From IMG/VR virus record IMGVR_UViG_3300001598_000066, positions 1-52,139 of that record: DNA of 52,139 nt. The stretch is one strand, 5' to 3'. Below are positions 12,462 through 33,429 of the stretch, one piece after another. Numbering within the stretch: position 1 is the first letter of the stretch; every line of letters starts with the position of its first letter. Below the pieces are notes generated by a model. The model had not been told where the DNA came from, made no database searches, and was given only the letters and a program-made list of their open reading frames with translations. The position numbers and the translations under genes are program-made. Source of the stretch: a virus.

Positions 12462-12478
12462 TTTTATTTCCTTTCTGT

Positions 12479-14308: not shown

Positions 14309-14537
14309 TCTTCCACCTCCTTTCTTATTTTTCTAAACGGAATCGGATGCCTTTGACCTTGACGTAGTGTAGAAATAATTCTATAATTGAGATACCACAT
14401 ACAATTAGAAATTATTACATACAATACGGAGGCATCCGTATCCGTATTTCTATACTCTATTGTAACCTTTATTCTACAATAGTCAAGCATATTGTGTGTA
14501 ATTATTTCTATGTTTTCAAAAAAATAAGAGGTTTAAG
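14309..14537. promoter_or_regulatory. Divergent immunity promoter/operator region
   Basis: Operator-like sites GTGTAGAAATAATT (14367-14380), TTAGAAATTATTACA (14405-14419) and the inverted copy TGTAATTATTTCTA (14497-14510). Also the inverted repeat CGGATGCC/GGCATCCG (14344-14351 / 14431-14438). Confidence 0.6.
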
Positions 14538-14924: not shown

Positions 14925-14926
14925 GT

Positions 14927-15142
14927 ATGAATGAAATCATAGTTCGCTATATGGATATGCCAACAACCGTTAAGGGCGTAGCGGTAAAGGATGCTGATGG
15001 AGATTATAACGTTTATATCAATCCCAGATTGGGAGATGTCGCACAAGTCCTCGCCTACGAACACGAACTACGCCATATCAATCGTGGAGATTTTGAAAGC
15101 GAAAAAGAGACTGTTTCAGAGAAGGAAGTTGCTAATTGGTAG
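14927..15142 (+). CDS. Minimal ImmA/IrrE-like zinc metallopeptidase (71 aa)
   Basis: GDYNVYINPRL....AYEHELRHI contains HExxH. It lies directly after the XRE repressor, the same arrangement as ImmR/ImmA. Confidence 0.55.
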   Translation: MNEIIVRYMDMPTTVKGVAVKDADGDYNVYINPRLGDVAQVLAYEHELRHINRGDFESEKETVSEKEVANW

Positions 15143-15208
15143 AACTATCCACACACACTATTTGTGTTCGTCAAACATGACAGAAACAGTCTTATTTAAG
15201 GAGATAGA

Positions 15209-16702: not shown

Positions 16703-16705
16703 AAA

Positions 16706-16731
16706 GAGGGCTGGGTTTTACCCCAGCCCTT
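16706..16731. terminator. Bidirectional hairpin between the convergent integrase and giant ORF
   Basis: Perfect 9-bp stem AGGGCTGGG-TTTTAC-CCCAGCCCT (16707-16730). On the minus strand it is followed by CTCTTTTTATATA. Confidence 0.7.
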
Positions 16732-16735
16732 CTCT

Positions 16736-19700
16736 CTACCTGTAATAGTACCACGGATTATTGTTACGTTCGTTCTTTACCCAACCACTATTGGCTGCAC
16801 GGAACAGCAGGTAGCAAGAGTGCCCATCAAGCCCCTGAGCTTCCATATTTCTGATTGCAGATGCAACTTCGTCCTGATTGTAGGACTGGTTATCATCTGA
16901 ATCAAAGTTGTCAATAATCGCCTGATAGGTAATTACATCCTTTGCATCAAGTCCATTGTACTTATCGTGCGTGGTTATTAAACCGTTTACCGCACTATTC
17001 TTTGCTTCAACGCTCGCATACGCCTTTGCCTTTTTCTTGTACTCCTCTTTATCTTCCTTGCTTAAGTCATAAGAAGGAAGCTTGTTTGTGTATTCATAGT
17101 ATTTAGCTTCGTATGTGTTCATCATCTTAGTATACTGGTTGTAACTAAGCTGATGTTCTCCACCATCACTATCCTTTACAAGAGTATCAAGTAAATCAAG
17201 ACTTTCGTATTTCTTCTCCGTTCCACGAACACCGTCCTGATAGTCGTTATAAACTTCAACCATCTCTTGCGTTATTGCGTTAATCTCATCGTGATAACCC
17301 TTTATAAGCTCTTCTCTACTGAGTGTAGGCTTATTGTTAGTTTCACGAATTGATTTCCACAGTTCCGACAGTCTCTTGTTCGGAGATATACCATAAGTAA
17401 CTTTTCCAGTCTCAGGACTTACATCCTTGTAACCTGCAAGCTCGTCAAGCTTTCCACCACTTGGTATCTTTACACCAGCATCCTTCAAGTGCTGAACTGC
17501 TGAATCGGAAGTATCATTGAACAATTTATATATGTTTTCATCATACTTACTCTTCCTGCCAGATTCGTAGTTGTCTTTGTCTCCTGCAGAACGTGCCTTA
17601 AGAGTGTAATATTCGTTGGTATATCTGTTGCTGTATGTAGTATCAGCAGATACCCTATCAGCAATACCAGATAAAGCACCGTACAGTCCTTTTGAAGGTG
17701 TTGTGGCAGGCAATGCGAACTGACCAATGACACCTGTGTATTGTTTGAGAACGTACTCTATACCCTTCGGAGTATTTAATGCTCCTAGTGAAGGAATATC
17801 CGGTAGTGCTTTTGCAAGCAATACGGCAAGTCTGCTCGTTGTATCATCGTAAACGTTGTTGTAGTAGCCACCAAACGGAGTTTCCTCTCCGGCTTCCATA
17901 GCATCATCAAATACCGAGCTTACAATCTTATTGCCAGACCAAGTTCTATTTGAACGTGCATCAAGGATTGGAGCAATGATTGTGCTGTATGATGGGACTA
18001 CGTCATCAAAGAACGAGTTCATCAAAGCCCATCCACCATCCTCTTCATCGTTCCACACCTTACGGAGTACAGTGTCAAAGGTCGTACTGAAAAGCCAACC
18101 AATTTCCTGCGGTTTAGGAATACGATAAAATTCTCCCTTATTACCACCGAACCACTCTTTATTAAGTATCCAGTAACCATTCTTGTAATAGTCGGGAAGC
18201 TTATCATATTCATCATCATCACGATGAGCAAATGCAAGTATAATTGTTGGGATAGTTAGAGCGATAATTGATTTTATCCAAGTCTGCTTAACAACTTTCT
18301 GCTTTTCAGTTTCGCTCATACCCTCATACTTTGCGCCCTTACCCTTGTATGCGTTATACACATCGGTAAGACCGTTAATTCCAGCTCTAAAGTACGGAAT
18401 AATCGCTGACATATCCTTTACAGTCTTTCCACTACCTTTACGTGAGAAGTCTGTTGTGACCTCTTGCGCCCTTCTGGAAGCAACAATTACAGCACTTTCT
18501 TTATCCATCCCCTTTTCGGTTAATTGATTCATACTGCGTGTATATTCAGCAAGTCGTGGAGCTGTTTCCATCAGGTTATTTAGGTTTTCAATTTCTCTAA
18601 TAAGGAACTTCCAACCATACTTTATACCTTCCTTGAAGCTCTTGCCCTTAAACCCATTCAGCTTAGCAATGGAATCAAGCATATAAGACATATCTTCAGA
18701 AAGCACCGATTCATAACCGATACCAGCAGCTTTATACGCCTGATAGCGTTCAGAGTCCTTAATAACATCTGCAATAGCCACAGCCCAATCTCTTACAGCT
18801 TTAACCGGATTAGCTTCGCTTCCCTTGATATATGCCAATGGAGCATCACGCCACGGATTGGAGAACAGCGCAAACAATGGGTTAGAGCCTGTTGTCAAGG
18901 TTGTCATTGTCCTCTTCAGTTTTGACATAGCACGCATCCAAGCTTTCATTTCGCTTGTATCACGCATAGCTTCCAACATATTGATAAGGGTTGGGTCAAC
19001 TGCAACAAACATCTCAACTTTATCGCCAGACTTTACTCTAAATACATCCTTTCGGTCAGTAGTGTAATCTGCTGTATAAAAATCAATGTAGTCATCAACA
19101 AGATTTTCAATGGCATCAGTTACATCTGAGACTCCATATTTTTCATCAAGCTGTTTCTTAATTTTGGGGTCAGCTTTATCAGCGTAATACTGTTTAGCTT
19201 CATCAACCGTCATTTTGGAATGAAGAACAGTTGCAAGCTCGCCTTCAAGCTTAGACTTTAATGCTTGTGCATCATAAGTGTTCTTTGTCGCACCAGCCTC
19301 ATACTCAGCTATGAACATTGACATAGCTTCGGATGTTTCTGGGTCATAGAACATATCTCTCATTGCCTTAAATACTTCACGATTCTTTTCTGATTTCACA
19401 ATACGGTTAATATCGTAAATCATAGTTTCAATCGGGTCGTACGTATCGTAGTCACTTCCCTTAGCAAACATGAACTGATTGCTGTCACCGAATCGGTCTC
19501 TTCTGAGTTTACCATCCTTACCTTCAATGACACGTGCATTGGAAACATACTTGGGGTTTAATGCTCGCAACTTGTCAAACAGGTCCTCTTCAACCATTCC
19601 AGTATCTACAAGCCACATTCTTTGGAACTTTTCGTACCAGTCATAGATTGATTGAGCTGTTTCGATGAACTCAGGATGTTCCTGTTCCCACGTTGCCTTC

Positions 19701-22700
19701 ATTTTCAACATTGTGTCAATGTTGTTTAAGCTACGTTCATACACTTGCTTCCCCTGATTCCACCATTCAATAGCGTGTTCGTTTTTCAAATACGCCTTAA
19801 ATGCTGTCAAATTGTCCTTTACTGGAACGAGCAGGCTGATAAATGACTTATCAACAAAAGTATCATCATTGGGGGCAACCATACCACTTTCAATAATGGC
19901 AGAAGCTTTAGCATCGGAAGTTCTCGCATTTTGAGCTTTCAAGAAAGGATTATCTTTTGGCTTGATATATTTTCCGGATAGTCTTCCGATTTCCTTATTC
20001 ATTTCATCAAGAGCTTTAAATTCTTCGACAACATTCGCTGTCAAATCAATTACCTTCTGACCAAATGTACGATAATCTTCAGGCTTATCTTTTCTGCTCT
20101 TAATGGAAGCTTCAGCTTTCTTTGTTGGGTCTGCATTAAGATATGTTTGTGCAAGGTCAGCAACCTTTTTAATCTTTTCCATATCTTCTTTAGAAAAAGC
20201 GGCTTCCATCTTTGGAATAAATCCTACGCCTTTATCAAACTCTTCAGCTCCTGCTGGGTTTGTACAATACAATCTGAACAGTTCTGCAAATGCTTCTCTG
20301 CGTATTTTTTCAGGGTCATTTTGGTATCTGTTCTGAACTCGCTGTTCAAAACGCTTTCCAATCTTCTGAAGGTCGTCTTCGTATACTTCGCTGAACTTAT
20401 ACTGACGGTCAAATTTATGACCAGCTTCGTGGAATGTAACAATCAGGTCATTATATTCCTTGAGTCGAATCTGTCCTCTATCAGGAATAAAGTAACCTAA
20501 TACCCTACGCTTCTTAAAATTGCCCGCACGTATAATTGGAACCTTAAACTCTTTGGAAACAATCTTGATTAAGTCGTTAGCGTTCTTGACAATTTCCTTT
20601 GTAGATGTTTCAGGCGTTGCCTTTGGTGCATAAAGCTGGCCTGTTGATACCTGCTTGGGTCCCTTGACAGCTTTCTTTTCCTTCTGTTTTGCCTTGCCCT
20701 TTTCCATTGCATTCTTAACTTTGTCAGATGTGGAAACATCAGCCATGAGTTCAATTCCCGAAGGTGAAGATGTAGATGTCTTATTAAATTGCTTCGGTTG
20801 AGCCGATTCTCTTCTCTGATGTTCTTCTTCGATTATGGTTTCCATATCAAGACCTTGTACGAACGGATTAATCGCCTTGCCTGAGCCGGATTCACCGAGT
20901 TCCTTTATAAGCGAATCTCTTTCCGCTTTATCCTTTGCAAGCAGTTCGCCCTTCTTAAACCCGGCATTCTCTACATTCGCTATGGCTTCATCATATCGTT
21001 TCTGCTGATACTGTAATGCTTTCTGGGAATTTCTTAAATGGTCTTCAATTCCAGAATAAGACTTTGTTCCGTTTAATGAGTTATTCAGTCTTAAAAATAC
21101 TGAGCTGAGAGGATAATGCAAATTAGTATCATCAGCATCGTACCTTCCACCATTTTCTTTGGTGAGCTGAATTACCTTTGGCTCAAATTCAGTCGGTCTG
21201 AGTCCATCAATGCTGAGTGTATATCTGCCCTTTTCGTACTTTGAATCATTATAAAGAACAATGTCGAATCCGTGGAACTTACCAACAACCTTGCTTTCGC
21301 CCACTTTTAATGTCTGAGCTATCGGAAGAAGTGCGTTGCTTGCCGCCGGGAATGTATCGTACACTTCTCCATCAATGGTAACATCGTTACTCGGATTATC
21401 TTTTAACACGGATACAGCAGATTCATAAATCGCAATGCGCTGTTCAAGGTTGAGCTTTGTTGAATCGAATTCACGGATAACACGCTGATACTGAATAGAC
21501 TCATTCTCGGCATTACGCTGTTCGGTTTCAAGTTTCTTGATTTCAGCTTTTACTTCGGCGAGCCTTTGCATTTTGGGATTGTTTGCGGCTTCAACTGACA
21601 TATTCGCAAAATCATCTGTGCCTAAATCCTCAAATTCTCGTTCGGTTGGGTCACCGTGAAGTACGCTTGAGATAAACTTGTTCTTCGTATCAAGGATATT
21701 CCACATCGCAGCATCGTATGAATTTTCAGTCGAATACATATATATCCGAACCGAATCATTCTCGTTGCCTTGTCTTATGGCTCTTCCGTTACGCTGTTCT
21801 ACATCTGACGGTCTAAATGGTGCATCAACATGGTGTACTGCCACAACCTTATCCTGAACATTCATCCCCTCCCCCATCATTGATGTGGAGCCTAGAAGAA
21901 TGCGCACATTTCCGCTTCTTACTTTCTCGAAAAGAGCTTCTTTCTTTTTGTCGCTATTACTTCCCTGAGTATCCTGAATAAATGCTATTTCATGCTCAGG
22001 AATACCCATTGCAACAAGTTTACGCTTTATATCCTCATACAGATTAAAATCATATCTTGCTCCGTACTGTTCCTCCAGAAGTTTATCCAATTTTTTCTTG
22101 TCGTTAGCGGAAAGTTCTTCTCCATTGGCTTCGCACTCTTCCTGTTTGACTAACAACTCTTCGAGCTGAGCAGTCTTTTGCGGTGTAAATGCAGACTTGT
22201 TGGGCGTACCTCTATCAAGGAATATTAACTGTGTACCACTTCTATCGGAACTATTTTTATATTCCTCGAATACATTATCGACTACCTTGTTAATCTTGCT
22301 CCCCTTAAAGTCGAGTGCGGACGGAGATAATGTTGATGGCAGGTAGCCCTTGTTCTGAAGTATCTTCATCACAAGTCTAAGGTCAAGTGCCGCCGCCTTT
22401 GCATCACCATATAAGAGTAATGAGTTTATACCTTCCGCTTTAAGGTCCTCAGGTCTCATTCCCTTAATCCTCTGTTTCTCGGATTCGATATATTCATTGA
22501 ACATATCAAGAAGTTCTGAGCTTTCAGATGTAATATGGCGCAATTCCGCTTTCGGTATCTTAAAGGTCGGGTCATTTGCAACAATATCATCAATGGTAAG
22601 CGTGTCTGTAAATTCCGCAAAGCCTTTTACAAGCTCAGGGATATTAACAAACTTCGAGAAACGCTGTTTCGCAACAATGCCTGTGCCTGTTGTGTTAGGC

Positions 22701-25700
22701 TCAAACCTTGTCACTATGTTTCCGAAATTTCCGGCAAATGCATCAAATGACTTCATATAGTATTTTTCGAGCAAGTCAGGTCTTAAATACCTGAACATAT
22801 TATACATTTCGCCCATTGTATTGGAAATGGGTGTAGCAGTCGCAAATACAACCTTGCCATTCATCTGATGGATTCGCTTCGTTGCCATTAACATTCGTGT
22901 GGTTTTCTGTGCATCACCTGTGCTTACACCGGCTATTCTGTCCATTGCAGTAAAGTTTTCAAGGTTCTTGTAGTTGTGGGCTTCGTCAACTAATATTGCA
23001 TCAATACCTGAATTGTCAAATGCCACAACATCATCTGTACGCTTGTTGCTCTTGCTCCTAAGTTCATCGAGCTTTGCCACATACTTCTGAACACGCTTTT
23101 TAAGTCCTGATAATTTTCTTTCAGATACTCCGTTGGATATTGCTGTTTCTAATGCCAAGTTCGCTTCGTCAATCCTCTCCTGATAGAACGCTTCTTCAAA
23201 CTCTGGTGTAAACGGCATTTTCTCAAAACTCGAATGACGCATTATGATACAGTCATAATCGTTTGTCGCAATGCTTTCAAGAAGCTTCTTCCTTACGCTT
23301 TCCGTCCAAGTACTACTATCAATAGCAAGGATATTTGCAGTCGGGTACATTCTATACCAATCTGATACAAAGTCAGGAAGCTTGTGATTCGGAACCACCA
23401 TTAATGGCTTATTTGCCATTCCGAGACGCTTCATTTCATGTGCTGCACCTATCATCGCAAATGTCTTGCCTGCGCCTACCCCGTGATTAAGTAATGTAGA
23501 TGGTGTTGTGAGCATCCTATATACTGCGTTCACCTGATGCTTTCTGAGATTGATTGCGCTTCCCGGCATCTTAAGGAATGACTGTTCCTTGCCCATAAAT
23601 GTATCAAACTTCCTAAGAACGGTTCTGTTCATTCGCTCGTTGTAGAGTTTAACAAGCTCATACATTCTGTCTACGTCTTTCTTCGCCCAGCTGTCAAAGT
23701 ATTCACTCATTTCATCCATCTTAGCCTGAACATTCTCCATTCCCTTAGTATCAGGAATAGGTTTCCCTCCAGGATTACTAATAGAAAGTTCAATACGTCT
23801 ATGGTTAAGTACAGCGTTGAGAATATCAACTCCGTCTACATCCTTAGAAGTTCCTTTAGCCGACCACTTCGCTGCCGATTTTCTGGTAGTATTTACATTC
23901 CATATTGAGAATGTCGGGTCATATGTGACCTTGATACTTCCGTCCGGCTCAATTCCGCATATATCATAAGCAAAATCAGCAATGGTATCTTCATCTATCC
24001 AAGCGGCACCAAGCTGAACCTTAATATCACCTGCACCAATATCCTTTGGGATTACGGATTCAAGAGCCTTAATCTGATTGTCATACTTATTCTCAATTCC
24101 GTACTTTTCCTCGTAGGCTTCATTCATGGCCTTAGCTTCTTCGAGCTTTGATTTAACATCACCACTCAGGTATTCTTCAGCCATTATGTAAGTTCCGTTT
24201 TCGTCTAAACTCGGTACTTCAAAGATTGTGTCGGACAGTTCAAGAAGTATATCCTCTTTACTCTTTCCATAAAGTTCTGACATATACTCCAAGTCTATGT
24301 TGCCATTAATGTTTATGCTCGCAAATAATGCGTCTAATGCAGTCTCAGCACTTGTGATATTACGGATAGCGTTTACAGTTCTCTTTGTAAATACATCAGA
24401 CTTTGTATAAACTTTTTTACCGTTAACCTCTTTGACTTGTTCCAACGCACAAATCATATCGTAACGAGGGTCGCCATCAAATATCTCTTTGGACGCACCA
24501 TCGCGTATGCGCCCTAACTCATTCTTTGAATTCTTGAAATTCTTTGTGTAGTCGTCATAGAGTTTAGTTAACTTATCTCTGTATTCCTGAAGGTCCGCAT
24601 CTTCTTCAAAGGTTTCCTGAGCGCGTGCGAGTTCAAGATACGCGTTTGCAATTTCTGTTAAGGCAATTGCACGCTTATAATCCTTGCTTCCCTTTTGGAT
24701 GTAGCTCTTTTTACGCTCTTTAACAATTTTTCCATCTTCAAAGGTCTGATTGCCATGTTCGTCTAATACATCCACTTTGGCTTGCAACCTCTTGAATGGT
24801 TTGGATAATTCCCCACCATCAACTGTATAAAGCTCGCCGTCCTTTACAATGTATGTGCCTGTGGGTTTACCAAACGCTTCATCATTTGTTAATGCCTTAG
24901 TTGTATCAGCGTCTTGCTGTGCAGCTTCGTACTGTTTCGCATTGGATATAATGTTTTTGGGAACCATATCAACGATTTCATCAATAGTTCTTCCGTCATC
25001 CTCAACAATTAAGTCTTTGCGCGATTCACCAAAACTCTTTATTGCAAAGTTGCCGATTACATTATTCGGATTATCAATCCAGAACTTAGATACAGTTTTG
25101 TTTGTTCCGTCCACTTCAAGCTTTGCGGTTGATGGGAACTCTGTACCTACGCTATATCCTGACTTTGACTTCTTCTGAAAGATGATTAAGTCGCATACAG
25201 TTTCAGTATTACCGAATGTTCCAGCAGGAAGTCTGAACGCGGTTATAAGGTTAGCCTTTTCCTTAATAAGACCTCCGACTGTTGTTCCGCTTCCCTCGTC
25301 CATAATGCTTGTTGGTGCGAGAACTGCCATTACACCATTCGGCTTTAACAGGTCTAACCCTTTAAGCACAAAGAAGTCATGGATATCTTGCGCTTTCTTT
25401 CCATATTGGAAGTTTTCATCGTAAACAGGGAAATTCTTTGAGAACGGGATATTGCCAACGATAAGGTCTAATGACTCTCTCGGTGCATTAAGTTTCTCAA
25501 ATCCTGATACAGTTACATCAGCATTGGGATATAGGAGTTTTGCGATGCTTCCCGAAATGCTATCAAGCTCTACCGCTGTTATTCCGTTATCACGCATACT
25601 CTCAGGCATTGTCCCAAGAAAAATACCCGTACCACAAGAGGGTTCGAGTATCTTACCATTAGCAAAGCCCATACGCTTTACTACGCTATATACAGTTTTC

Positions 25701-28700
25701 GCTACTTCAACAGGCGTATAGAAGGCAGTCATTGTGCCGTTCTGCATTGCTGTATTGTATGCCTCTTTGCCTATCAAGTCTTTAAGTTTATCGGAACGTT
25801 CAATATCAGCTTGAGTCTTTGAATTGAAGATGTTTTTCAGTCCGCCCCAACCAGTAAAGTTCGCAAGCATCTCCATTTCTTCAGGCGTTGCGGATGTCCT
25901 TCCTTCGTCCTGAATTTGCTTCAATGTTTCAATAGCTTTAATATTTGCATCAAAACGTGCAGTCTTGCTCTTCTTTAGTATTGGGAGATTTTCGATTACA
26001 AAGCCTTTATTATCTCTTCCGCCTCTGCCCTCACCATTTCCTCTGCCATCAGAGGAAGCTGCATTGTCATTCTCGTTAATGCTAGGAAGTCTGTCTGCTG
26101 TGCTTTCTTGTATTCCTCCGTCTGCTCCAACTGTTCCCTCAGCTTGTCCCTGATGTCTATCTCCCTGCTTGACATTCTGCTCTGCAACTGCTTCACTTTG
26201 AATTCCAGAGTTCCTGCCTGTTTCAGTCTGTTGTACGCTTCCGGATTCAGATATTGGATGTAGTCCCGAATTTGACTGTTGTTCATTGTTCCCTTTCTCC
26301 TTTTGACTTGTATTTGATAATTTACTCTCAGATGTCAAGTTTTTTGTAGGCTTATCTGATTCAGACTTATTTACAGATTGAGGCTTATATCCCTCGTCCG
26401 TGTTATTCGATTCTGATTCATTCTTGCGTTTCGCAAACTCTTGTTTGAATTTGTCGGAAAAAGATTTGAGCTTACTTGGCTTTTGGTTGACTAATTCTTT
26501 TGCTTTAATCGGGAGTGCCACACCACTAATTTCCCCATCTGCGTTTTTACTATAAAGATAATGACACCCTCCAAATGTATCATCGCTTATGAAGAATTGA
26601 CTATCGCTTAAAAGGTCTACATATTTCTTGGTAAATACTGACGATAAATCTTTGGCAAACGAATAAACCTTTGTCCCATTGGCAAGCTCAGCTTCTGTTG
26701 GAGCATTTTCTACAATCGACATTTTCTGACCAAGAATTTCATCAAACCTCTCAACTGAACCATCAAATCTAATGTTTGTCTTTTTATACTTATCCTTATT
26801 ATCAATTATAGCATCAGCTTCTTCTTTGGTAGATAGAATTGCGCAATAATTATCGCTGAGATAGTATTTACCGTTTGAAACAATTACTGAAAATTTATCG
26901 CTTTTACTTATCCATTTGTTCACACTATCTCTTATTGTAGGCTCTTGCTTGTATTTCGCCTTTAATTTATCTAACACAGACGAAATAGCGTTTGGGTTGT
27001 TATTAATTTCAAAACTTCCATCATATGGGATATCAGTTTTAATAACACCATCTTTTGAATTTGAACCTTCTATAATGGCTTTGATTAACGATAGCTGTTG
27101 TTCCTTGCTAAATCCTTCAACGTTTCCCTTGATATCAAAATCTTCAAATTTTAATTCTCCATTCAGAAGAGCATCCTTTATTGCAGTGATGTTATCTGTT
27201 GAAACTGAACGTTGCTTTATTTTAAGCTTTGCATCATCGGTTTCGTCTTCATCAGGGATTGTATCACCAGTGTTGTCAACCTCTTTAATTTGGTTACCAT
27301 CATTGTTTGTCAAATCATCCTGTGTAGTTGTTTGAGTTTCCGATGATTCACTCTTGAGCGCATTGACCTTGAGCTTGTACTTTAATTCAGTTGCATCAAG
27401 TTCACCGTCAGCTACAACACCAATATCCTCAAGAGCTTTCCAATCAGCATTGTTAATATTGAGATTCTTCTGAGTGAGAGCAATATCAATCTCATCAAGA
27501 GCATCAACTCTGTCGAGTATCTCTGTTCCTAGTCTATCAAGCAAATCGCCCTGAGCCTCGGAAGATACTTCACCGTTATCACTGCTTTCAGTTTTATAGT
27601 CGGAAAGCTTAACAACCTGTGCTTCTCCAGTTGTGTTTGCTACGCCCTGAGCTTTTTTGAGACCATTGAATAATCCGGTTACATCAATCTCTGTTGGTCC
27701 TTTAGGCGTTTCTGTTTGAGATTCATTCGATTCCTTTAATCTTCTTGCTCTTTCGTCAAATATATACTCTTTATTTATATATTCGAATGTACTACCATCT
27801 TGAGATGTTTCCGTTTCCATCAGACCAGCATTTCTGAGTGCATTTGCCTGTTCCTCGGTTATTCCGTCCATAGAATATGGTCTATCGTACTGCGATTCTG
27901 CCATTGTAATAAGCGTATCACTTGATAGTTTAGATAAAGCGTCAATCTGAGATTGTGTATAATTAATTCCGCTTTGCCCGGTATAAACAATCTTATTTGT
28001 ACTTACATCTTTTGATGTTCCAGTATTAGAAGCATTATCTACGTACTTCTTATAATACGCTTTAACTCCATCTGCAAAGTGTTCTCCAAGAGCATTTTTG
28101 CCAACCTTTGCATTTACGGATTCGATAATGTCCTGTGCTGTGTAGTCTTTATAATCAGAGACTTTAGCATAAAACTCTCTGCCTGAATATTTGGCTGGCA
28201 TATCACGGAACCTGAAGTACAAATCATTGTTCTTATCAACAATGTCAATAAGTTCATACGGAGACATACCGCTCTCTCCATAGGTTTCGCTTTTACCCTC
28301 ACTATTCAGATTACGGTAAAATACATTAGGCTCTATTACACGCTCTAATATTGAACGACTATCACCATAATGTATAGGAGCATCATCGTGCTTTGCTTCA
28401 ACCTCAAGAACTCCCCGGTCTCTTAGACCAGCATCGTATGCAAGTTTTGCGGCTCTCTCAGATAAAGGAATATCAAGCTCGTGGAACGCATACTGTTTTC
28501 CATATCTGCTATCCTTGTCGATATCATAATTGAAGTCATCTCCAAATAACCCTAAGCGGTAATAGCCTTGCATTGCTTTTACATACGGTATTGCATTGTC
28601 TAAATAGTCATTGTATATTGAGCTATTTGTTACGGCCTTATACCAATATGTATCTTCCGAACGCCCCTTTGAAAGGGTTTTTGCATACTTTTCAATCTCT

Positions 28701-31486
28701 TTGATGGTTTTGTCTTTATTGATTGGAGAAGTTTCAATGCTATCTTTTTCATAATTGGATGTAGCTTCTGGAACATCTGTTTCAGGATTCTCCCAATTTT
28801 TCATTGTATCGCTCAACCAATTCTCAGCATCGCTTTGCGATGTAAATTCAGCTCCATCAATGTGTCTATTGTTAGAATCTTTTATAGATACAATGTAGCT
28901 ATTTCCAAATTGACCCATATCGACTTCTATAATTTTGCCATTATACTTATCCCCATCAACTGACTTAACGGTTGTACGTTTTACATCGTAATTGCCATTC
29001 TGAGTATTTACTGAAACGTTACTAGGCGTTTTAGTATCGTCCTTATCGGATTCATCGTATTCTCCTGCACGTTGTTTTTCTTCTTCGGTAGCTTCGACAA
29101 GTTTCTGTTTTGATGTTAAATTGAATAAGAACTTACGGAAATGTTCCTCATTGTCATAATCATCTATTGTGTAACCACCAAGATATTGCTTAGCAAGTTC
29201 TCGCCAGTTTTCAATTCCCTGAGCTTTAGCATAAGCATCAGCATTAAAATGTTTAGGCTTCTTTTCTTCAACCTTTGGGGCAAAATGAGTAGCATCAATG
29301 GTCTCTCCACCAATGATATTGACAATATCGTTGTATGTTTTTGCAAGAGCTTCTTTATCTACAGGAATGTTTTCTTCGCCAGTCAAAACAGCTTTGAAGA
29401 GTTTGGAATTAACATCAAGCTTCATTCTATCAGCTTTTGTGATGTTATCACCCTTATTGAGAATATTAGCAACATCTTTTGCACGTGCTTCAATCTTGGT
29501 TGCAAGTCTCTTCTCAGCATTTTCGCTTCCACGCTGAATACCTGTTAATGTGTAAATATCGTATGTTCTCGTTTTAGCATTTGAGGTCTTAGGTGTTTTA
29601 TCAGATTCTTTATTAACTTCGTCAACGTTCTTCTTTATTTCGTATGGAGTTTCTATAACATTATTTATATCAACTCCACTTTCAGCTAATGCATTTGCCA
29701 ATCTACCAACTTCGTATCCTGATACAGTAGAGCCTGCATTGAGTCTTGCATTGATTTCATTTGCATACTCAAATGCTTCAGAATCCTTTGTTGTTTTAAG
29801 TCCCTCATTGACAAGTATCTGAATATTATCCTTTAGATTACCTCCACGACCGGTTGTCTGAGCTGTTGAATATAATGTGCTTGTTCCGCCCATCATAAGA
29901 CCAGACAATCCTCCAACAAGATAACTGTTCAAGGTATCTGCTGCAGCCTGTTGCCAATAATCAGATGTAAGCAAATCTTTCCATTCCGTATCGTTTACAT
30001 TAAACATAGGGTTGATTACAAATGAATCGATTATTGAACCTACAAGCTCTTCGAAAGCCTCACCCCTGAATGATGAAATGGCACTTGCAACATAATCTTT
30101 AATAGCTTCGCTTCCACCTTTGCGGAACATTTTATTAACAAGCTTTTCTGTAGTTCCCTCAAAGAAATCATCAAGAGTTGTACCCTTGCGACCAGATGCT
30201 ACATCAAGGAACGATGCTTGCGTTAATAGTTCTGTTGCGACTTCTTTTACAGCAACAGCAGTTCCGTATGATGCAATTGTCATAAGATTTGCATCATCTT
30301 TATTTCTTGCCTGTGTAGTCGCATTACCATAGGCCCTGAGATAAAAAGGAGTAAAATACGCTGCACTCTGAGATAGGCTCTCAGCGATATTAGTTACAAT
30401 CTGTTTAACCTTTTCTGGATTGCCTAAAGTCTTTCGTGCTTGCTTTGCAACTTCTTTTGTTGGCATAGCCCCTATGACTTCTTCAGCTTTAGAAAATTCG
30501 GGAGTTCCAAAAATGACTCTAGAGAATACTGCATCAAGTCCGTTTTCTATTACAGAGGATTCTGCTTGAATTAACTTCTGACCAACAACACCTTTGCCTG
30601 ACTGCGCATCCTCTAAATTCTTTTGTGCGGACTTTTCAAGGTTAGTATTTAATTCCTGCGTAGCTTTCAGAATTTTACTTTCTCCTGTTTTATCTTCAGA
30701 TTCTTTGTACGCAGAATTTACATTGTTATTAGTACCGTCAATGTTTTCTGCCGTATTAAAAGCATTGTACTTAATCTGCGCCTGAGAGAGCATTTGCTTA
30801 TCATATTCAAGTGTTTTTTCATCAGCTCCGTTGGCAACATCTTCATCACAAGTGTTCTTCCAGAAATCAACATCTCTTTTTGCACTTTCAGAAGTGCCAT
30901 TATAGATATTTTGTCTTGTTTCAGTTCCAGCCTGATAGTTTGTGGCGAATTTTCCAGACAACCCAGCCGCCCAATTCTTTATTGCAGATTTTGCAACATT
31001 GCTTTGAGTTTCTTTAAATTCGCTTGTATCAATGGAATTGCTTATAGGTACAGCACCGACAATAGCAGGATTAGACTTTGCTAATATAGTCTGTTTTGCA
31101 GTAGTATCCATATTCTGCGTATCAAGAGCATTGATGTTTATATTAGAAAAAGAGCCAACGGAGTTTTGTCCGTTGGCTTCATTTCTCTTGATATAAAAAT
31201 CATCAAGCTTTGAATCTCCATTACGAGTAGTTGCTGGAGATTCTGCATATTCATCTCTTGCATCTTCCGTAAATGCGTTTGTGCTATGTTCAGGTTCTTC
31301 TATAGTAACCTTTTTAGGGTTAGCTGTTATAGTCTGATTCTGTAATGTATTTACAAATACAGTTCCAGATTTAGTAGGGGTCTCGTTCTGTTTACTCTCA
31401 TTCTCAACAGGCTTTTGTACTGGTTTCTGAGTATCGGTGCTTGTAACCGATTTGCCTGTATTCTTGTTCACAAATGTTACAGACAT
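16736..31486 (-). CDS. Giant polyvalent protein (4,916 aa): N6-adenine DNA methyltransferase + SNF2/DEAH helicase + HExxH zincin + C-terminal TM-containing region
   Basis: Single uninterrupted ORF with RBS GGAGGAATAAAATG. Domain motifs are listed as separate features. Confidence 0.9.
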   Translation of the reverse strand: MSVTFVNKNTGKSVTSTDTQKPVQKPVENESKQNETPTKSGTVFVNTLQNQTITANPKKVTIEEPEHSTNAFTEDARDEYAESPATTRNGDSKLDDFYIKRNEANGQNSVGSFSNININALDTQNMDTTAKQTILAKSNPAIVGAVPISNSIDTSEFKETQSNVAKSAIKNWAAGLSGKFATNYQAGTETRQNIYNGTSESAKRDVDFWKNTCDEDVANGADEKTLEYDKQMLSQAQIKYNAFNTAENIDGTNNNVNSAYKESEDKTGESKILKATQELNTNLEKSAQKNLEDAQSGKGVVGQKLIQAESSVIENGLDAVFSRVIFGTPEFSKAEEVIGAMPTKEVAKQARKTLGNPEKVKQIVTNIAESLSQSAAYFTPFYLRAYGNATTQARNKDDANLMTIASYGTAVAVKEVATELLTQASFLDVASGRKGTTLDDFFEGTTEKLVNKMFRKGGSEAIKDYVASAISSFRGEAFEELVGSIIDSFVINPMFNVNDTEWKDLLTSDYWQQAAADTLNSYLVGGLSGLMMGGTSTLYSTAQTTGRGGNLKDNIQILVNEGLKTTKDSEAFEYANEINARLNAGSTVSGYEVGRLANALAESGVDINNVIETPYEIKKNVDEVNKESDKTPKTSNAKTRTYDIYTLTGIQRGSENAEKRLATKIEARAKDVANILNKGDNITKADRMKLDVNSKLFKAVLTGEENIPVDKEALAKTYNDIVNIIGGETIDATHFAPKVEEKKPKHFNADAYAKAQGIENWRELAKQYLGGYTIDDYDNEEHFRKFLFNLTSKQKLVEATEEEKQRAGEYDESDKDDTKTPSNVSVNTQNGNYDVKRTTVKSVDGDKYNGKIIEVDMGQFGNSYIVSIKDSNNRHIDGAEFTSQSDAENWLSDTMKNWENPETDVPEATSNYEKDSIETSPINKDKTIKEIEKYAKTLSKGRSEDTYWYKAVTNSSIYNDYLDNAIPYVKAMQGYYRLGLFGDDFNYDIDKDSRYGKQYAFHELDIPLSERAAKLAYDAGLRDRGVLEVEAKHDDAPIHYGDSRSILERVIEPNVFYRNLNSEGKSETYGESGMSPYELIDIVDKNNDLYFRFRDMPAKYSGREFYAKVSDYKDYTAQDIIESVNAKVGKNALGEHFADGVKAYYKKYVDNASNTGTSKDVSTNKIVYTGQSGINYTQSQIDALSKLSSDTLITMAESQYDRPYSMDGITEEQANALRNAGLMETETSQDGSTFEYINKEYIFDERARRLKESNESQTETPKGPTEIDVTGLFNGLKKAQGVANTTGEAQVVKLSDYKTESSDNGEVSSEAQGDLLDRLGTEILDRVDALDEIDIALTQKNLNINNADWKALEDIGVVADGELDATELKYKLKVNALKSESSETQTTTQDDLTNNDGNQIKEVDNTGDTIPDEDETDDAKLKIKQRSVSTDNITAIKDALLNGELKFEDFDIKGNVEGFSKEQQLSLIKAIIEGSNSKDGVIKTDIPYDGSFEINNNPNAISSVLDKLKAKYKQEPTIRDSVNKWISKSDKFSVIVSNGKYYLSDNYCAILSTKEEADAIIDNKDKYKKTNIRFDGSVERFDEILGQKMSIVENAPTEAELANGTKVYSFAKDLSSVFTKKYVDLLSDSQFFISDDTFGGCHYLYSKNADGEISGVALPIKAKELVNQKPSKLKSFSDKFKQEFAKRKNESESNNTDEGYKPQSVNKSESDKPTKNLTSESKLSNTSQKEKGNNEQQSNSGLHPISESGSVQQTETGRNSGIQSEAVAEQNVKQGDRHQGQAEGTVGADGGIQESTADRLPSINENDNAASSDGRGNGEGRGGRDNKGFVIENLPILKKSKTARFDANIKAIETLKQIQDEGRTSATPEEMEMLANFTGWGGLKNIFNSKTQADIERSDKLKDLIGKEAYNTAMQNGTMTAFYTPVEVAKTVYSVVKRMGFANGKILEPSCGTGIFLGTMPESMRDNGITAVELDSISGSIAKLLYPNADVTVSGFEKLNAPRESLDLIVGNIPFSKNFPVYDENFQYGKKAQDIHDFFVLKGLDLLKPNGVMAVLAPTSIMDEGSGTTVGGLIKEKANLITAFRLPAGTFGNTETVCDLIIFQKKSKSGYSVGTEFPSTAKLEVDGTNKTVSKFWIDNPNNVIGNFAIKSFGESRKDLIVEDDGRTIDEIVDMVPKNIISNAKQYEAAQQDADTTKALTNDEAFGKPTGTYIVKDGELYTVDGGELSKPFKRLQAKVDVLDEHGNQTFEDGKIVKERKKSYIQKGSKDYKRAIALTEIANAYLELARAQETFEEDADLQEYRDKLTKLYDDYTKNFKNSKNELGRIRDGASKEIFDGDPRYDMICALEQVKEVNGKKVYTKSDVFTKRTVNAIRNITSAETALDALFASININGNIDLEYMSELYGKSKEDILLELSDTIFEVPSLDENGTYIMAEEYLSGDVKSKLEEAKAMNEAYEEKYGIENKYDNQIKALESVIPKDIGAGDIKVQLGAAWIDEDTIADFAYDICGIEPDGSIKVTYDPTFSIWNVNTTRKSAAKWSAKGTSKDVDGVDILNAVLNHRRIELSISNPGGKPIPDTKGMENVQAKMDEMSEYFDSWAKKDVDRMYELVKLYNERMNRTVLRKFDTFMGKEQSFLKMPGSAINLRKHQVNAVYRMLTTPSTLLNHGVGAGKTFAMIGAAHEMKRLGMANKPLMVVPNHKLPDFVSDWYRMYPTANILAIDSSTWTESVRKKLLESIATNDYDCIIMRHSSFEKMPFTPEFEEAFYQERIDEANLALETAISNGVSERKLSGLKKRVQKYVAKLDELRSKSNKRTDDVVAFDNSGIDAILVDEAHNYKNLENFTAMDRIAGVSTGDAQKTTRMLMATKRIHQMNGKVVFATATPISNTMGEMYNMFRYLRPDLLEKYYMKSFDAFAGNFGNIVTRFEPNTTGTGIVAKQRFSKFVNIPELVKGFAEFTDTLTIDDIVANDPTFKIPKAELRHITSESSELLDMFNEYIESEKQRIKGMRPEDLKAEGINSLLLYGDAKAAALDLRLVMKILQNKGYLPSTLSPSALDFKGSKINKVVDNVFEEYKNSSDRSGTQLIFLDRGTPNKSAFTPQKTAQLEELLVKQEECEANGEELSANDKKKLDKLLEEQYGARYDFNLYEDIKRKLVAMGIPEHEIAFIQDTQGSNSDKKKEALFEKVRSGNVRILLGSTSMMGEGMNVQDKVVAVHHVDAPFRPSDVEQRNGRAIRQGNENDSVRIYMYSTENSYDAAMWNILDTKNKFISSVLHGDPTEREFEDLGTDDFANMSVEAANNPKMQRLAEVKAEIKKLETEQRNAENESIQYQRVIREFDSTKLNLEQRIAIYESAVSVLKDNPSNDVTIDGEVYDTFPAASNALLPIAQTLKVGESKVVGKFHGFDIVLYNDSKYEKGRYTLSIDGLRPTEFEPKVIQLTKENGGRYDADDTNLHYPLSSVFLRLNNSLNGTKSYSGIEDHLRNSQKALQYQQKRYDEAIANVENAGFKKGELLAKDKAERDSLIKELGESGSGKAINPFVQGLDMETIIEEEHQRRESAQPKQFNKTSTSSPSGIELMADVSTSDKVKNAMEKGKAKQKEKKAVKGPKQVSTGQLYAPKATPETSTKEIVKNANDLIKIVSKEFKVPIIRAGNFKKRRVLGYFIPDRGQIRLKEYNDLIVTFHEAGHKFDRQYKFSEVYEDDLQKIGKRFEQRVQNRYQNDPEKIRREAFAELFRLYCTNPAGAEEFDKGVGFIPKMEAAFSKEDMEKIKKVADLAQTYLNADPTKKAEASIKSRKDKPEDYRTFGQKVIDLTANVVEEFKALDEMNKEIGRLSGKYIKPKDNPFLKAQNARTSDAKASAIIESGMVAPNDDTFVDKSFISLLVPVKDNLTAFKAYLKNEHAIEWWNQGKQVYERSLNNIDTMLKMKATWEQEHPEFIETAQSIYDWYEKFQRMWLVDTGMVEEDLFDKLRALNPKYVSNARVIEGKDGKLRRDRFGDSNQFMFAKGSDYDTYDPIETMIYDINRIVKSEKNREVFKAMRDMFYDPETSEAMSMFIAEYEAGATKNTYDAQALKSKLEGELATVLHSKMTVDEAKQYYADKADPKIKKQLDEKYGVSDVTDAIENLVDDYIDFYTADYTTDRKDVFRVKSGDKVEMFVAVDPTLINMLEAMRDTSEMKAWMRAMSKLKRTMTTLTTGSNPLFALFSNPWRDAPLAYIKGSEANPVKAVRDWAVAIADVIKDSERYQAYKAAGIGYESVLSEDMSYMLDSIAKLNGFKGKSFKEGIKYGWKFLIREIENLNNLMETAPRLAEYTRSMNQLTEKGMDKESAVIVASRRAQEVTTDFSRKGSGKTVKDMSAIIPYFRAGINGLTDVYNAYKGKGAKYEGMSETEKQKVVKQTWIKSIIALTIPTIILAFAHRDDDEYDKLPDYYKNGYWILNKEWFGGNKGEFYRIPKPQEIGWLFSTTFDTVLRKVWNDEEDGGWALMNSFFDDVVPSYSTIIAPILDARSNRTWSGNKIVSSVFDDAMEAGEETPFGGYYNNVYDDTTSRLAVLLAKALPDIPSLGALNTPKGIEYVLKQYTGVIGQFALPATTPSKGLYGALSGIADRVSADTTYSNRYTNEYYTLKARSAGDKDNYESGRKSKYDENIYKLFNDTSDSAVQHLKDAGVKIPSGGKLDELAGYKDVSPETGKVTYGISPNKRLSELWKSIRETNNKPTLSREELIKGYHDEINAITQEMVEVYNDYQDGVRGTEKKYESLDLLDTLVKDSDGGEHQLSYNQYTKMMNTYEAKYYEYTNKLPSYDLSKEDKEEYKKKAKAYASVEAKNSAVNGLITTHDKYNGLDAKDVITYQAIIDNFDSDDNQSYNQDEVASAIRNMEAQGLDGHSCYLLFRAANSGWVKNERNNNPWYYYR
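18232..18285 (-). other. Predicted transmembrane helix in the giant ORF (about aa 4400)
   Basis: WIKSIIALTIPTIILAFA flanked by charged residues. Confidence 0.45.
20300..20560 (-). other. HExxH zincin-like metallopeptidase motif region of the giant ORF (about aa 3645-3730)
   Basis: LIVTFHEAGHKF (HEAGH at 20417-20431) with a downstream EAFAELF as a possible third ligand. Confidence 0.5.
21700..23570 (-). other. SNF2/DEAH-box helicase domain of the giant ORF (about aa 2640-3260)
   Basis: Walker A GVGAGKTF (23459-23482). ILVDEAHNYKN (22964-22987). Motif VI QRNGRAIRQGN (21764-21796). Confidence 0.8.
25130..25850 (-). other. N6-adenine DNA methyltransferase domain of the giant ORF (about aa 1880-2120)
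   Basis: Motif I ILEPSCGTGIFLG (25618-25644). Motif IV LIVGNIPF (GNIPF at 25442-25456). The motif order I then IV is gamma-class-like. Confidence 0.8.
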
Positions 31487-31500
31487 TTTATTCCTCCATT

Positions 31501-33429
31501 TTATTCAGAAATTGTATATCCAAGCTCCGCCAACTGAGCCAAAATTGCGTTCTTCTCAGCGAATGTTGTTGCCTCAGCGTAAGCATTTGCTAATTCTTGA
31601 GCCTTCATAACATCAGACATTGACTCATCGTTAAGAGCGTATTTCTCATTTACGATTGAGTCACCGACAACAGATGGTATTAAGCTCTGCTTACGAATAG
31701 TTGTTTGTGATACATACTTCTTATAAGCATCTTCCGCACTCAGGTTTCCAGCAGCCTTCTTTGTTGCAGGACCGTAAGAACCATCAATGTCACCTGTATA
31801 TGCACCACTAGCCTTTAATGCTTTCTGAAGTGCTACAACCTGAGATACAGAAGCAGATGTAGCTCCGTATGCAACGGTATTGATTGTAACGTTGTAATTA
31901 CCAGCATTTAATGTCTTAACTAACTCTCTCTGCTGTGAGGCTGAAAGCGTTGGATAAATACTGTTTACATCTTTCTGAGCTGTATCGTTAGATAACGATT
32001 TATTCTTTAATCCTGATAATACAGTATTGTATGTTGCTACGCTTTCAGAAGAATCTTCTTTAGAAGTCGTATCTTTCTTCTGTGTGCTATCATCAGTTGT
32101 TACAATCTGCTGTGCAACTTCATCGTCAGTATTATCTTCTTCATCCTTTGCAAGATAGCTTTCAGCTAATCCGAGAATTGCAATCAGCTTGTCAAGGTCA
32201 AATTCCTCAGCTTCCATCTTAGCCTGCATAATCTGAATAGCATCTTCCTTGCTGTTGTTCATAATATCGTATGCAAGTTCGTTTACATACTGATTCATTT
32301 CGCCTTCAAGGTTTGTTCTTGCTTCATATCTTGCGGCTTCTGTTACAGGCTGACCCATCCATCCACCACTTAAGGCGTTATTTACGATTGCATTATCAGC
32401 GTTCTTAAATGCTGTTTCATACTGAGGAGTATACATTTCCTTTGCATACGCATAAGATTCAGCCCAAGTAAGGAAGTCCTGAATTTCGGTAGTGTCTGTA
32501 AAGTTGTTGATAATTGTGTCGTACAACTGTTCAACAATTTCCTGATTAGACATCTCGGTAAGTGGAGTTTCCGTCTGCTGTTGTGTCTGCTGTTGCTGAG
32601 TAGGCTGCTGAGTAGGTGTAGTTGGAGTTGTAGTATCAACGGTTACTGTTGTCTGCTTATTAAGAGCGTTCTGAATAGAAGTTCTTGTTTCAGGACCAGT
32701 CTTTCCATCTACAGTAAGTCCATTAGCTTTCTGATACTGTTTAACAGCATTGGCTGTTTCAGTACCGTAATTTCCGTCAACAGCAATCTTATAGCCAAGA
32801 GAATTAAGTGCCTGCTGTAACTGTTTTACATCAGAGCTATTGTATATTCCCTGATACAGATTCTTTGACCAGGTGTATGTAGTTCCCTGATTACCTGAAG
32901 TAGTTCCACTTGCTGAAGTACCACCTGTAGTTGTACCTGCTGATGTTGTACCTCCTTTAGAGGTAACATAAGCATCACGAAGCCTATCGACTTCTGCAGC
33001 CATTGTGATATTTCCGTTTTTGGCATAATTGTCTCTTACTGTTGAAAAATCATTTGTTCCAGCCTTGTATGTTCCCCAAAGCTTTTCGTCCCATCCAGTA
33101 GGAGATGTAGTTGTTGCAACTGTTCCACCTGTTGTAGTTCCTCCTGTTGATGTTCCATTAGAACCACTACTTGATTCCTTAGACGAACCACCAGAACTAG
33201 AACCACCACTAGAGCTTGCTTTAGTTGCATTGTCATATGTAGTCTTATCAGTTACTGTGACCTTATCTCCTGTTGAACCACCAGAATATCCATAATTACT
33301 ACGAATATTGTTAGCTTCTTTATTTGCATCTGCCCAAGAGATTATTCCGGCCTTTGCTTCGTTTCTTAATGACTCAATTTTTTGCTGGTCACTTGTGCTT
33401 AATACAGAATCGCTTCCTATTACAGACAT
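31501..33429 (-). CDS. Protein with two peptidoglycan-binding (PG_binding_1-like) repeats and low-complexity linkers (642 aa)
   Basis: VKQLQQALNSLGYKIAVDGNYGTETANAVKQYQKANGLTVDGKTGPETR and VVALQKALKASGAYTGDIDGSYGPATKKA. Also contains S/G/T-rich and Q-rich tracts. Confidence 0.7.
   Translation of the reverse strand: MSVIGSDSVLSTSDQQKIESLRNEAKAGIISWADANKEANNIRSNYGYSGGSTGDKVTVTDKTTYDNATKASSSGGSSSGGSSKESSSGSNGTSTGGTTTGGTVATTTSPTGWDEKLWGTYKAGTNDFSTVRDNYAKNGNITMAAEVDRLRDAYVTSKGGTTSAGTTTGGTSASGTTSGNQGTTYTWSKNLYQGIYNSSDVKQLQQALNSLGYKIAVDGNYGTETANAVKQYQKANGLTVDGKTGPETRTSIQNALNKQTTVTVDTTTPTTPTQQPTQQQQTQQQTETPLTEMSNQEIVEQLYDTIINNFTDTTEIQDFLTWAESYAYAKEMYTPQYETAFKNADNAIVNNALSGGWMGQPVTEAARYEARTNLEGEMNQYVNELAYDIMNNSKEDAIQIMQAKMEAEEFDLDKLIAILGLAESYLAKDEEDNTDDEVAQQIVTTDDSTQKKDTTSKEDSSESVATYNTVLSGLKNKSLSNDTAQKDVNSIYPTLSASQQRELVKTLNAGNYNVTINTVAYGATSASVSQVVALQKALKASGAYTGDIDGSYGPATKKAAGNLSAEDAYKKYVSQTTIRKQSLIPSVVGDSIVNEKYALNDESMSDVMKAQELANAYAEATTFAEKNAILAQLAELGYTISE

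Follow-up and report, generated by a model that had tools for sequence, protein, structure and literature searches.

Phage-type polyvalent proteins were described by Iyer et al. in 2017 (PMC5512222) as carriers of a dyad of a methyltransferase and an SF2 helicase (MTase-SF2), a metallopeptidase (MPTase) hub and the phage-only domain LPD38. In that work, the SNF2 motor was proposed to carry the methylase along DNA that is entering the cell, and the zincin to cut such proteins into working parts. The DarB protein of the phage P1 is located inside the head (~40 copies), is directed there by the 30 residues at its N-terminus and confers protection against EcoK and EcoB; its incorporation needs the partners DarA, Hdf, DdrA, DdrB and Ulx, and its translocation into the cell is "believed" but was not shown (PMC9024508). 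For gp69 of the phage JC1, 51 unique peptides were found in CsCl-purified virions, and this protein was ranked second in the virion proteome (PMC9144972). Here, we analyzed a window of 52,139 nucleotides (the whole stretch of positions 1 to 52,139 of the IMG/VR virus record IMGVR_UViG_3300001598_000066), in which one giant open reading frame (ORF) encodes a protein of 4,916 amino acids (aa). This protein is probably of the same kind, namely a phage-type polyvalent protein with several activities on one 551-kDa polypeptide, which would be made late, packaged into the capsid and released with the DNA.

The giant ORF (positions 16736–31486, minus strand) is a single uninterrupted frame of 14,751 nt with an ATG start in the ORF listing, and the predicted mass and isoelectric point of its product are 550.7 kDa and 5.2. 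An earlier reading of the window, made from its letters alone (the sequence-only reading), had described an uninterrupted 14.75-kb ORF with a strong ribosome-binding site; both the frame and a GGAGG sequence six bases before the ATG were found. Every motif quoted there was located as well, namely EPSCGTGIF (aa 1948), GNIPF (2011), GVGAGKTF (2669), VDEAH (2833), QRNGRAIRQGN (3231) and HEAGH (3686).

The central part of the protein corresponds to the methylase-helicase core of DarB. Profile searches (Pfam, NCBIfam and PADLOC) revealed a type II or orphan-like N6-adenine methylase at aa ~1915–2104 and a helicase at aa ~2645–3340, and PHROG 10089 ("DarB-like antirestriction") matched aa 1692–3617 with an E-value of 0. 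A BLASTP comparison with P1 DarB gave 36% identity for the methylase (E 3e-31), with the unusual motif IV N-[IV]-P-F common to both proteins, and a collinear match for the helicase (E 9e-22). These results agree with the gamma-type N6-adenine methyltransferase, the SNF2/DEAH helicase and the P1 DarB architecture proposed in the sequence-only reading, and the homology to methyltransferase and helicase folds on which it depended was detected by the profile searches. The order of the two domains, the methylase (aa 1915–2104) and then the helicase (aa 2645–3340), is that of the MTase-SF2 dyad of phage-type polyvalent proteins. The core was found by tblastn in 144 phage records, 68 of which cover at least 80% of it at ~29–33% identity. 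The matches include VvAW1, Atu_ph08, SopranoGao/LASTA, PEp14/Pavtok/Stean, Bcep22/BcepMigl and PBC5, are mostly annotated "DarB-like antirestriction" and comprise many human faecal phage contigs. For a relative designated P0010, from the locus L007, the precomputed Pfam list names PF28553 (WH_1), PF28554 (DUF8437) and PF28555 (Helicase_dom); these are newer than the Pfam copy scanned here, i.e., parts of the DarB-like core were recently given Pfam models.

Like the giant protein, P1 DarB is a very large late protein of a temperate phage, with a homologous and collinear core. Unlike it, DarB consists of 2,255 aa, and no domain X, zincin, transmembrane (TM) helix or LPD38 (see below) could be detected in it by alignment; the giant protein adds ~1,840 aa before the core and ~1,300 aa behind it. 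In addition, P1 is a myovirus with five partner Dar proteins, whereas no such family was found among the 31 ORFs of the window scanned with PHROGs, the small ORFs having been scanned in part.

The C-terminal lobe of the helicase also matched the DrmD, DpdE and DrmA models, and the gene abuts an integrase gene, as would be expected of a prophage-expressed defence module (DISARM-, BREX- or Dpd-like) that guards the lysogen like a moron. However, this explanation is very improbable. The matches cover ~100–190 aa, with the helicase C-lobe alone being aligned, and their scores are far under the curated cut-offs (47.6 bits against 610 for DrmD and 30.6 against 500 for DpdE), so membership in DISARM DrmD or Dpd DpdE was rejected. 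No partner defence genes were found in the window, the gene shares its direction with the late genes and runs towards the integrase gene, and its best full-length matches are DarB-like proteins of phages.

Behind the core, the protein contains a C-terminal module of ~1,000 aa consisting of a zincin-like metallopeptidase, a helical region, one TM helix and LPD38. In an alignment of eight sequences, the zincin residues H3686, E3687, H3690 and E3731/A3734/E3735 were invariant, as were ~30 further positions through the TM helix and LPD38. No Pfam model matched the zincin region and no fold match was obtained for it. The HEAGH zincin and the late TM helix noticed earlier are thus upheld by the invariant ligands and by a single strong hydrophobic helix, respectively, while the statement that ~1,200 C-terminal residues hold no domain has to be corrected, since LPD38 was found there above the gathering score. 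Taken together with the core, the protein shows the features of the polyvalent class that the sequence-only reading had named: a length of more than 2,000 aa with several domains (methylase, helicase, zincin, LPD38 and at least four further conserved segments), the dyad, HExxH with a downstream Glu, LPD38 (E 2.2e-23) and a position among the late and packaging genes of a portal-terminase phage.

The C-terminal ~1,300 aa had nine protein matches in a large protein database. Among the relatives, the module is free-standing in P0001–P0003 (1,363–1,475 aa, covering 85–90% of the ~1,300 aa), is linked to different N-terminal regions in P0004 and P0007–P0009, and forms fusions with different cores in P0011, P0016 and P0017. 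A tblastn search against phages showed 22–24% identity of aa ~3640–4600 to the C-terminal parts of giant proteins of Vibrio, Shewanella and Pelagibacter podophages, and a 567-aa piece of the module (aa 4050–4616) matched 323 phage records, ~170 of which are 933W-like Shiga toxin (Stx) phages. The giants also share an end motif, (K/N)NNPW/Y, which falls in the last ~10–25 residues. Modeling of the module using AlphaFold led to a mean predicted local distance difference test score (pLDDT) of 44.9; the zincin (pLDDT 70–83) and one helical stretch alone were modelled, and the remainder is predicted to be helical at low confidence. A Foldseek search with this poor model gave nothing, its hits being meaningless. 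Judging from the matches, the C-terminal third is a conserved and widespread module and not open space for new effectors.

In the phage phiARM81mr, the carrier of the module is annotated as 'putative virion structural protein'. A 44.7-kb temperate phage (L003/L004, 4664–14092) has a 'split' version at the equivalent locus, in which a 1,755-aa protein without a Pfam match is followed by a 1,363-aa zincin-LPD38 protein, with no methylase or helicase; the pair is placed between the lysis genes and a tyrosine integrase gene. The 1,755-aa protein was considered as a counterpart of the N-terminus of the giant protein and rejected, the BLASTP match being not significant, the hhalign probability 5% and the resemblance left being at the level of motifs alone. 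The label 'PLxRFG' carried by Klebsiella phage relatives was also set aside, having no functional literature, and the motif as such is absent from the giant protein.

A comparison with other described giants indicated that gp01 of the Vibrio phage VvAW1 is similar both in the core (33% identity over 89%) and in the C-terminal module (24% identity); its gene is located at the end of the structural module and follows a 'DNA ejection' gene. Bcep22 gp75 and JC1 gp69 are similar in the core and in the position beside the lysis genes, but the Bcep22-type giants are absent from the matches to the C-terminal module. In contrast to the giant protein studied here, the podophage giants (VvAW1, Bcep22/JC1, PEp14, Parlo and SopranoGao) belong to phages of Gram-negative hosts and have different N-termini, with an N-terminal lytic transglycosylase annotated in some of them; the phage of this window is of Clostridia type, temperate and equipped with a diversity-generating retroelement (DGR). 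The 'LPD5 domain-containing protein' gp48 of PA2 (Sepvirinae; 2,793 aa) has 24% identity over 55% of aa 4050–4616 and is likewise encoded by the last late gene, next to attR; this similarity is weak and partial, and no match to the methylase-helicase core or the N-terminus was seen. The virion RNA polymerase of coliphage N4 is a functional analogy only: it is also giant, virion-packaged and ejected, with a zincin-like MPTase domain (PMC5512222), but its cargo is an RNA polymerase.

The N-terminal part gave a different picture. No match was found by tblastn of aa 1–1800 against phages, by a word-indexed search of aa 1–1700 against 5.8 billion proteins, by IMG/VR scans in which the N-terminus, the C-terminus and the capsid protein served as queries, or by comparing the N-terminal ~1,370 aa with Pfam and PDB and the whole protein with PDB sequences. 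When the N- and C-terminal parts were scanned tile by tile with Pfam and PHROG, the result was sub-threshold noise, except for LPD38 and two giant families of unknown function. An exhaustive HMMER search with aa 471–1670 revealed 17 relatives, mostly giants of 3,000–4,700 aa, and conserved segments were then mapped on them by BLASTP (Table 1). The 'anchor' segment is common to small free-standing proteins and to other giants (P0022, P0023, P0025 and P0026), and the domain at aa 931–1153 had no Pfam or PHROG match in the tile-wise scans. Thus, the observation that ~1,850 N-terminal residues hold no recognizable domain stands as far as Pfam and PHROG thresholds are concerned, but the region does contain conserved segments shared with other giants. 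Similarly, the idea that two thirds of the protein are unassigned and could hold new effectors can be kept for the N-terminal ~1,700 aa with their conserved domains and not for the C-terminal third.

The segment directly upstream of the core, here called domain X, was found in ten relatives (aa ~1375–1700), eight of them at least 3,000 aa long, and is free-standing in P0021. An AlphaFold2 model built on the 10-sequence alignment reached a mean pLDDT of 82.4. Comparison of this model with the PDB gave no significant neighbour (best E-value 0.11), and a search of PDB sequences with the domain X profile gave nothing. In a library of predicted viral structures, the only matches were A0A8S5V917, A0A8S5SE67 and A0A8S5VDX2, free-standing uncharacterised proteins of 186–228 aa from uncultured Caudovirales. 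The alignment of domain X found nothing among 5.8 billion proteins in a search of the kind that is limited by its word index.

In order to assess the integrity of the ORF, P0010 (4,427 aa; Logan SRR32334799, locus L007, gene 5972–19255) is of special value. This protein is collinear with aa 1375–4916 at 42% identity and has the segment of aa 675–802 in matching order, and its gene has identical neighbours, namely those of an M15 endolysin, a small protein, a 660-aa peptidoglycan (PG)-binding protein, the giant protein and a serine recombinase; by this comparison it is a true ortholog. Despite the 42% identity elsewhere, the N-terminal ~1,370 aa are largely unrelated, as are most of the first ~950 aa of P0010. 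The relatives P0019, P0011, P0016, P0017 and that of L008 are similar in domain X and the C-terminal module; P0011, P0016 and P0017 match the giant protein only outside the central core, in which they appear by eye to carry a different methylase or helicase. The first ~130 aa are kept in P0010 and P0011. The segment at aa 57–166 is possibly a packaging or targeting region, and the conserved termini around divergent interiors could, more generally, be signals of this kind.

The GC content at third codon positions (GC3) is 0.27–0.29 over codons 1–1500 and 0.37–0.41 beyond codon 2000. Such a step within the ORF (near codons 1500–2000) could be produced if a faulty assembly, or a stop codon lost through a sequencing error, had fused two or more genes. 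This is the least probable of the explanations considered: P0010, from an independent sample, keeps the collinear architecture across the junction, with domain X directly before the core and equal neighbours; eight other relatives of at least 3,000 aa share the order of domain X, core and C-terminal module; the contig closes into a circle; and the GC content varies elsewhere in the genome too (0.33–0.44). A chimeric assembly, named earlier as a way in which the ORF could be false, can therefore be set aside. The seam, near 25500–27000, coincides with the border at which the hypervariable N-terminus gives way to the conserved part, and this suggests that the N-terminal part was exchanged as a cassette by recombination.

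An exact direct repeat of 99 bp is common to both ends of the window (1–99 and 52041–52139), so the contig is a circularly closed assembly with ~52,040 bp of unique sequence, 28.3% of which is taken by the giant ORF. The sequence-only reading considered this relative size and the placement after the lysis cassette unusual, and neither view was supported. The giant gene of VvAW1 (gp01; 10,923 nt, 3,640 aa) makes up 28.2% of a 38,682-bp genome, that of the Microbacterium EK2 podophages (13,464 bp) makes up 25% of ~54 kb (PMC8281081), and those of JC1 (gp69; 4,515 aa, 61,182 bp; PMC9144972), the Vibrio phage 1.211.A (8,148 nt, 37,169 bp) and Bcep22 (gp75; 13,809 nt, 4,602 aa, 63,882 bp) make up 22.1%, 21.9% and 21.6%, respectively. 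With 4,916 aa, the protein is the longest among the giants compared, by a margin of ~5% (the next are 4,670, 4,602, 4,515 and 4,427 aa). As for placement, the giant gene adjoins the lysis genes of Bcep22 and JC1, in the Stx phage PA2 it directly precedes attR as the last gene, and in the Clostridia-type relatives L003/L004, L007 and L008 the gene at this locus is located between the lysis genes and the integrase gene, as it is here. The protein is thus a slightly record-sized, recognizable phage-type polyvalent protein with several precedents for its size and position.

The phage is temperate. On the minus strand, genes of the large terminase subunit, portal protein and major capsid protein are followed by those of an SU10-type adaptor, a 680-aa protein without assignment and a tail-fibre-like protein, then by the DGR, two small membrane proteins and an M15-peptidase endolysin, and finally by those of a 157-aa protein, a 642-aa PG_binding_1 protein and the giant protein. 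The giant ORF, which closes this series ahead of a terminator, has the orientation of the genes for terminase, portal, capsid, tail fibre and lysis. A large serine recombinase gene and a repressor-like gene on the plus strand converge on it, and replication and recombination genes (DnaD-like loader, Sak4-like and NinB-like) are located further along. The first of the two terminator-like hairpins listed in Table 1 sits in the 33-bp gap between the giant ORF and the convergent integrase gene, and both hairpins flank the block of the three last genes, which may be a transcription unit apart from the lysis cassette. The 642-aa protein, encoded directly upstream of the giant gene, has long S/T/G/Q-rich linkers and no recognizable catalytic domain; it has a 660-aa PG-binding counterpart before the ortholog in L007 and could be a wall-anchoring partner of the giant protein.

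Table 1. Positions of the segments of the giant protein and of neighbouring features in the window.
Feature	Residues (aa)	Nucleotides	Strand	Remarks
N-proximal segment (DDFY...GSFSN...DTTAKQTIL)	57–166	30989–31318	minus	common to P0011 (BLASTP E 1.5e-9) and P0010
'Anchor' segment (GEAFEEL...VGGLSGLMMGG...NEGL...AxEIxAxLNAG)	437–644	29555–30178	minus	phrog_22978, E 3e-7
Segment common to ortholog P0010	675–802	29081–29464	minus	39% identity
Domain common to the 4,670-aa giant P0011	931–1153	28028–28696	minus	36% identity, E 3e-37
Short helical segment common to P0018	1168–1244	27755–27985	minus	49% identity
Domain X, alpha/beta, upstream of the methylase core	1415–1700	26387–27244	minus	ten relatives
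Low-complexity polar linker (Q/S/G/N/E-rich)	1701–1840	25967–26386	minus	81% polar/charged, 12% hydrophobic
Helical cap and gamma-type N6-adenine DNA methyltransferase	1841–2110	25157–25966	minus	motif I EPSCGTG 1948, motif IV GNIPF 2011
Inter-domain region of the DarB-like core	2111–2644	23555–25156	minus	spanned by PHROG 10089/11801 and by tblastn to 68 phage records
SF2/SNF2-type helicase	2645–3340	21467–23554	minus	GAGKT 2671, DEAH 2834, QRNGRAIRQGN 3231; Pfam, NCBIfam, PADLOC
Post-helicase coiled/helical part of the core and linker	3341–3639	20570–21466	minus	PHROG 10089 match reaches aa 3617
Zincin-like metallopeptidase	3640–3795	20102–20569	minus	HEAGH 3686–3690; third ligand in EAFAE 3731–3735
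All-helical conserved part of the C-terminal module	3796–4401	18284–20101	minus	phrog_14770, E 1.5e-12
Sole predicted TM helix (TWIKSIIALTIPTIILAFA)	4402–4421	18224–18283	minus	hydropathy scan; position kept in homologs
LPD38 (Pfam PF18857)	4424–4596	17699–18217	minus	E 2.2e-23, 83.8 bits against a cut-off of 27
C-terminal tail ending ...NNNPWYYYR	4597–4916	16739–17698	minus	similar NNPW/NNPY end in P0010, P0011, P0016, P0017, P0019
Terminator-like hairpin (9 bp, 7 G-C) and T-run		16707–16730	minus	6 nt past the giant-ORF stop
Terminator-like hairpin		33940–33960	minus	between the endolysin gene and the 157-aa gene
Shine-Dalgarno sequence GGAGG		31493–31497	minus	6-nt spacer to the giant-ORF ATG; read directly
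Upstream partner gene, 642-aa protein		31501–33429	minus	two PG_binding_1 domains, aa ~198–250 and ~525–569
Upstream partner gene, 157-aa protein		33432–33905	minus	no function assigned; 182-aa gene at the equivalent place in L007
Complete DGR		35537–38998	minus	
DGR reverse transcriptase		35537–36679		
DGR template repeat (TR)		36748–36886		
DGR Avd-like gene		36885–37328		
DGR variable repeats VR1 and VR2		37351–37489, 38194–38332		3' ends of two paralogous target genes
ORF block at 1–3700		352–723, 1201–1650, 2377–2772, 3098–3664	plus	no PHROG match

In profile scans of the window proteins, no tape-measure, tube or sheath families were detected. The nearest capsid relatives (Shocker) also have no tape-measure gene and carry a 1,743-aa gene before the endolysin gene, and together these findings make a short-tailed (podovirus) morphology likely. 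PDB sequence searches made in this connection with the 680-aa, portal and capsid proteins gave no match. The host is probably a Clostridia-type Gram-positive bacterium, as indicated by a related locus in an Eubacteriales metagenome-assembled genome, by the human faecal phage contigs among the core matches and by the types of endolysin and loader. This locus (L008) was the sole related one among species-representative genomes, scanned with a two-sequence alignment as the query. In megablast comparisons with 50,697 phage records, neither the ORF nor the structural module had a match; by these searches, the phage is one without a close cultured relative.

With a short tail, the giant gene could also be read as encoding an essential ejection or internal-core protein, whose C-terminal module would form, together with the 157-aa and 642-aa proteins, a DNA conduit across the thick Gram-positive wall and the membrane; the methylase-helicase and the N-terminal domains would then be cargo on this scaffold. 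This proposal overlaps with that of a packaged polyvalent protein and differs in that the gene would be structurally indispensable. It is consistent with the SU10-type adaptor and the features of tail and capsid relatives given above, with the presence of the module alone, without methylase or helicase, at the equivalent place in L003/L004 and L005, and with the spread of the module in short-tailed phages (933W-like Stx phages, Pelagibacter and Vibrio podophages and phiARM81mr). The 'DNA ejection' gene before the giant gene of VvAW1, the conservation of the PG-binding partner in L007, the all-helical module with its one TM helix and the terminators around the three genes point in the same direction. 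However, PHROG, Pfam and PDB searches with the C-terminal module and the two upstream genes revealed no similarity to characterised ejection proteins, neither of the two smaller proteins has an ejection-protein annotation, the virion-proven Bcep22/JC1 giants are absent from the tblastn matches to the module, and the podovirus morphology is inferred and not observed. An indispensable conduit is accordingly a possible but doubtful explanation.

For the polyvalent protein that we consider the probable one, a course of action can be proposed from the related systems. The DarB-type unit would pair a gamma-class N6-adenine methylase with an SNF2-like translocase acting in cis on the entering genome, and by tracking along the DNA and modifying or shielding it, this unit would cause host restriction (type I in the P1 paradigm) to fail to cut. 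The zincin that opens the C-terminal module would probably divide the polyprotein into its working units, either ahead of delivery or after it. The helical region, the TM helix and LPD38 would be the constant part, most likely serving virion incorporation and/or passage through the envelope, and the N-terminal ~1,370 aa would be a fast-evolving, exchangeable set of accessory domains. Packaging into the virion and delivery with the DNA are suggested by analogy with JC1 gp69 and P1 DarB.

Several points weigh against this proposal. The virion proteomics data come from proteins that share the core alone at ~29–33% identity and are not close relatives. The partners needed by P1 DarB are lacking among the PHROG-scanned ORFs, and the hairpin that parts the three-gene block from the lysis genes means that the timing of expression could differ from that of the structural genes. 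Even for P1, DNA methylation by DarB and the ejection of such large proteins are believed but undemonstrated (PMC9024508). Finally, the C-terminal module could not be modelled, and its role is a guess.

Some of these points would also fit an unpackaged intracellular late enzyme, an orphan methylase with a translocase that methylates progeny genomes before packaging, with the rest of the protein having other intracellular roles. The gene follows the lysis cassette, from which a terminator-like hairpin separates it, the virion evidence for this lineage is not direct, and PADLOC labels the methylase as 'orphan MTase'. Nevertheless, such an enzyme is unlikely: homologs (JC1 gp69 and P1 DarB) are virion proteins, LPD38 and the zincin hub typify proteins that are delivered (PMC5512222), and a simple maintenance methylase would hardly be expected to be a 551-kDa fusion that includes a TM helix.

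In addition to the giant gene, the window contains a complete DGR, in which one template repeat serves two variable repeats, which is less common than one target. The targets (262 aa and 265 aa) have weak DUF6273-like C-termini, and the differences between template and variable repeats are located at template adenines. The plus-strand ORF block at 1–3700 has a positive GC skew, unlike the remaining genome. No tRNA genes or Rfam families were found in the window.

As a counter-defence finding, the giant protein adds little to the work of Iyer et al. (2017) and to the precedents of Bcep22, JC1 and VvAW1. Its value is that of a clean and complete example of the polyvalent-protein build in a Gram-positive (Clostridia-type) gut phage, in which the C-terminal module is constant, the DarB-type core can be exchanged and the set of N-terminal domains is hypervariable. 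Domain X and the domain at aa 931–1153, which are conserved, foldable and unannotated, are bounded targets for discovery. Speculatively, the C-terminal module with the 157-aa and 642-aa proteins could be an unrecognized ejection apparatus of many short-tailed phages, among them Clostridia phages of the gut, Stx phages and podophages of Vibrio and Pelagibacter. In this case, the giant gene would provide an essential scaffold with interchangeable grafted effectors, one of which, domain X (aa ~1420–1690), would represent a novel fold whose activity, directed against the host or at the handling of DNA, would likewise be new. Hundreds of phages, those of the Stx type included, carry the zincin-TM-LPD38 module; should it indeed prove to act in ejection, this would account for many giant genes now called 'hypothetical'.

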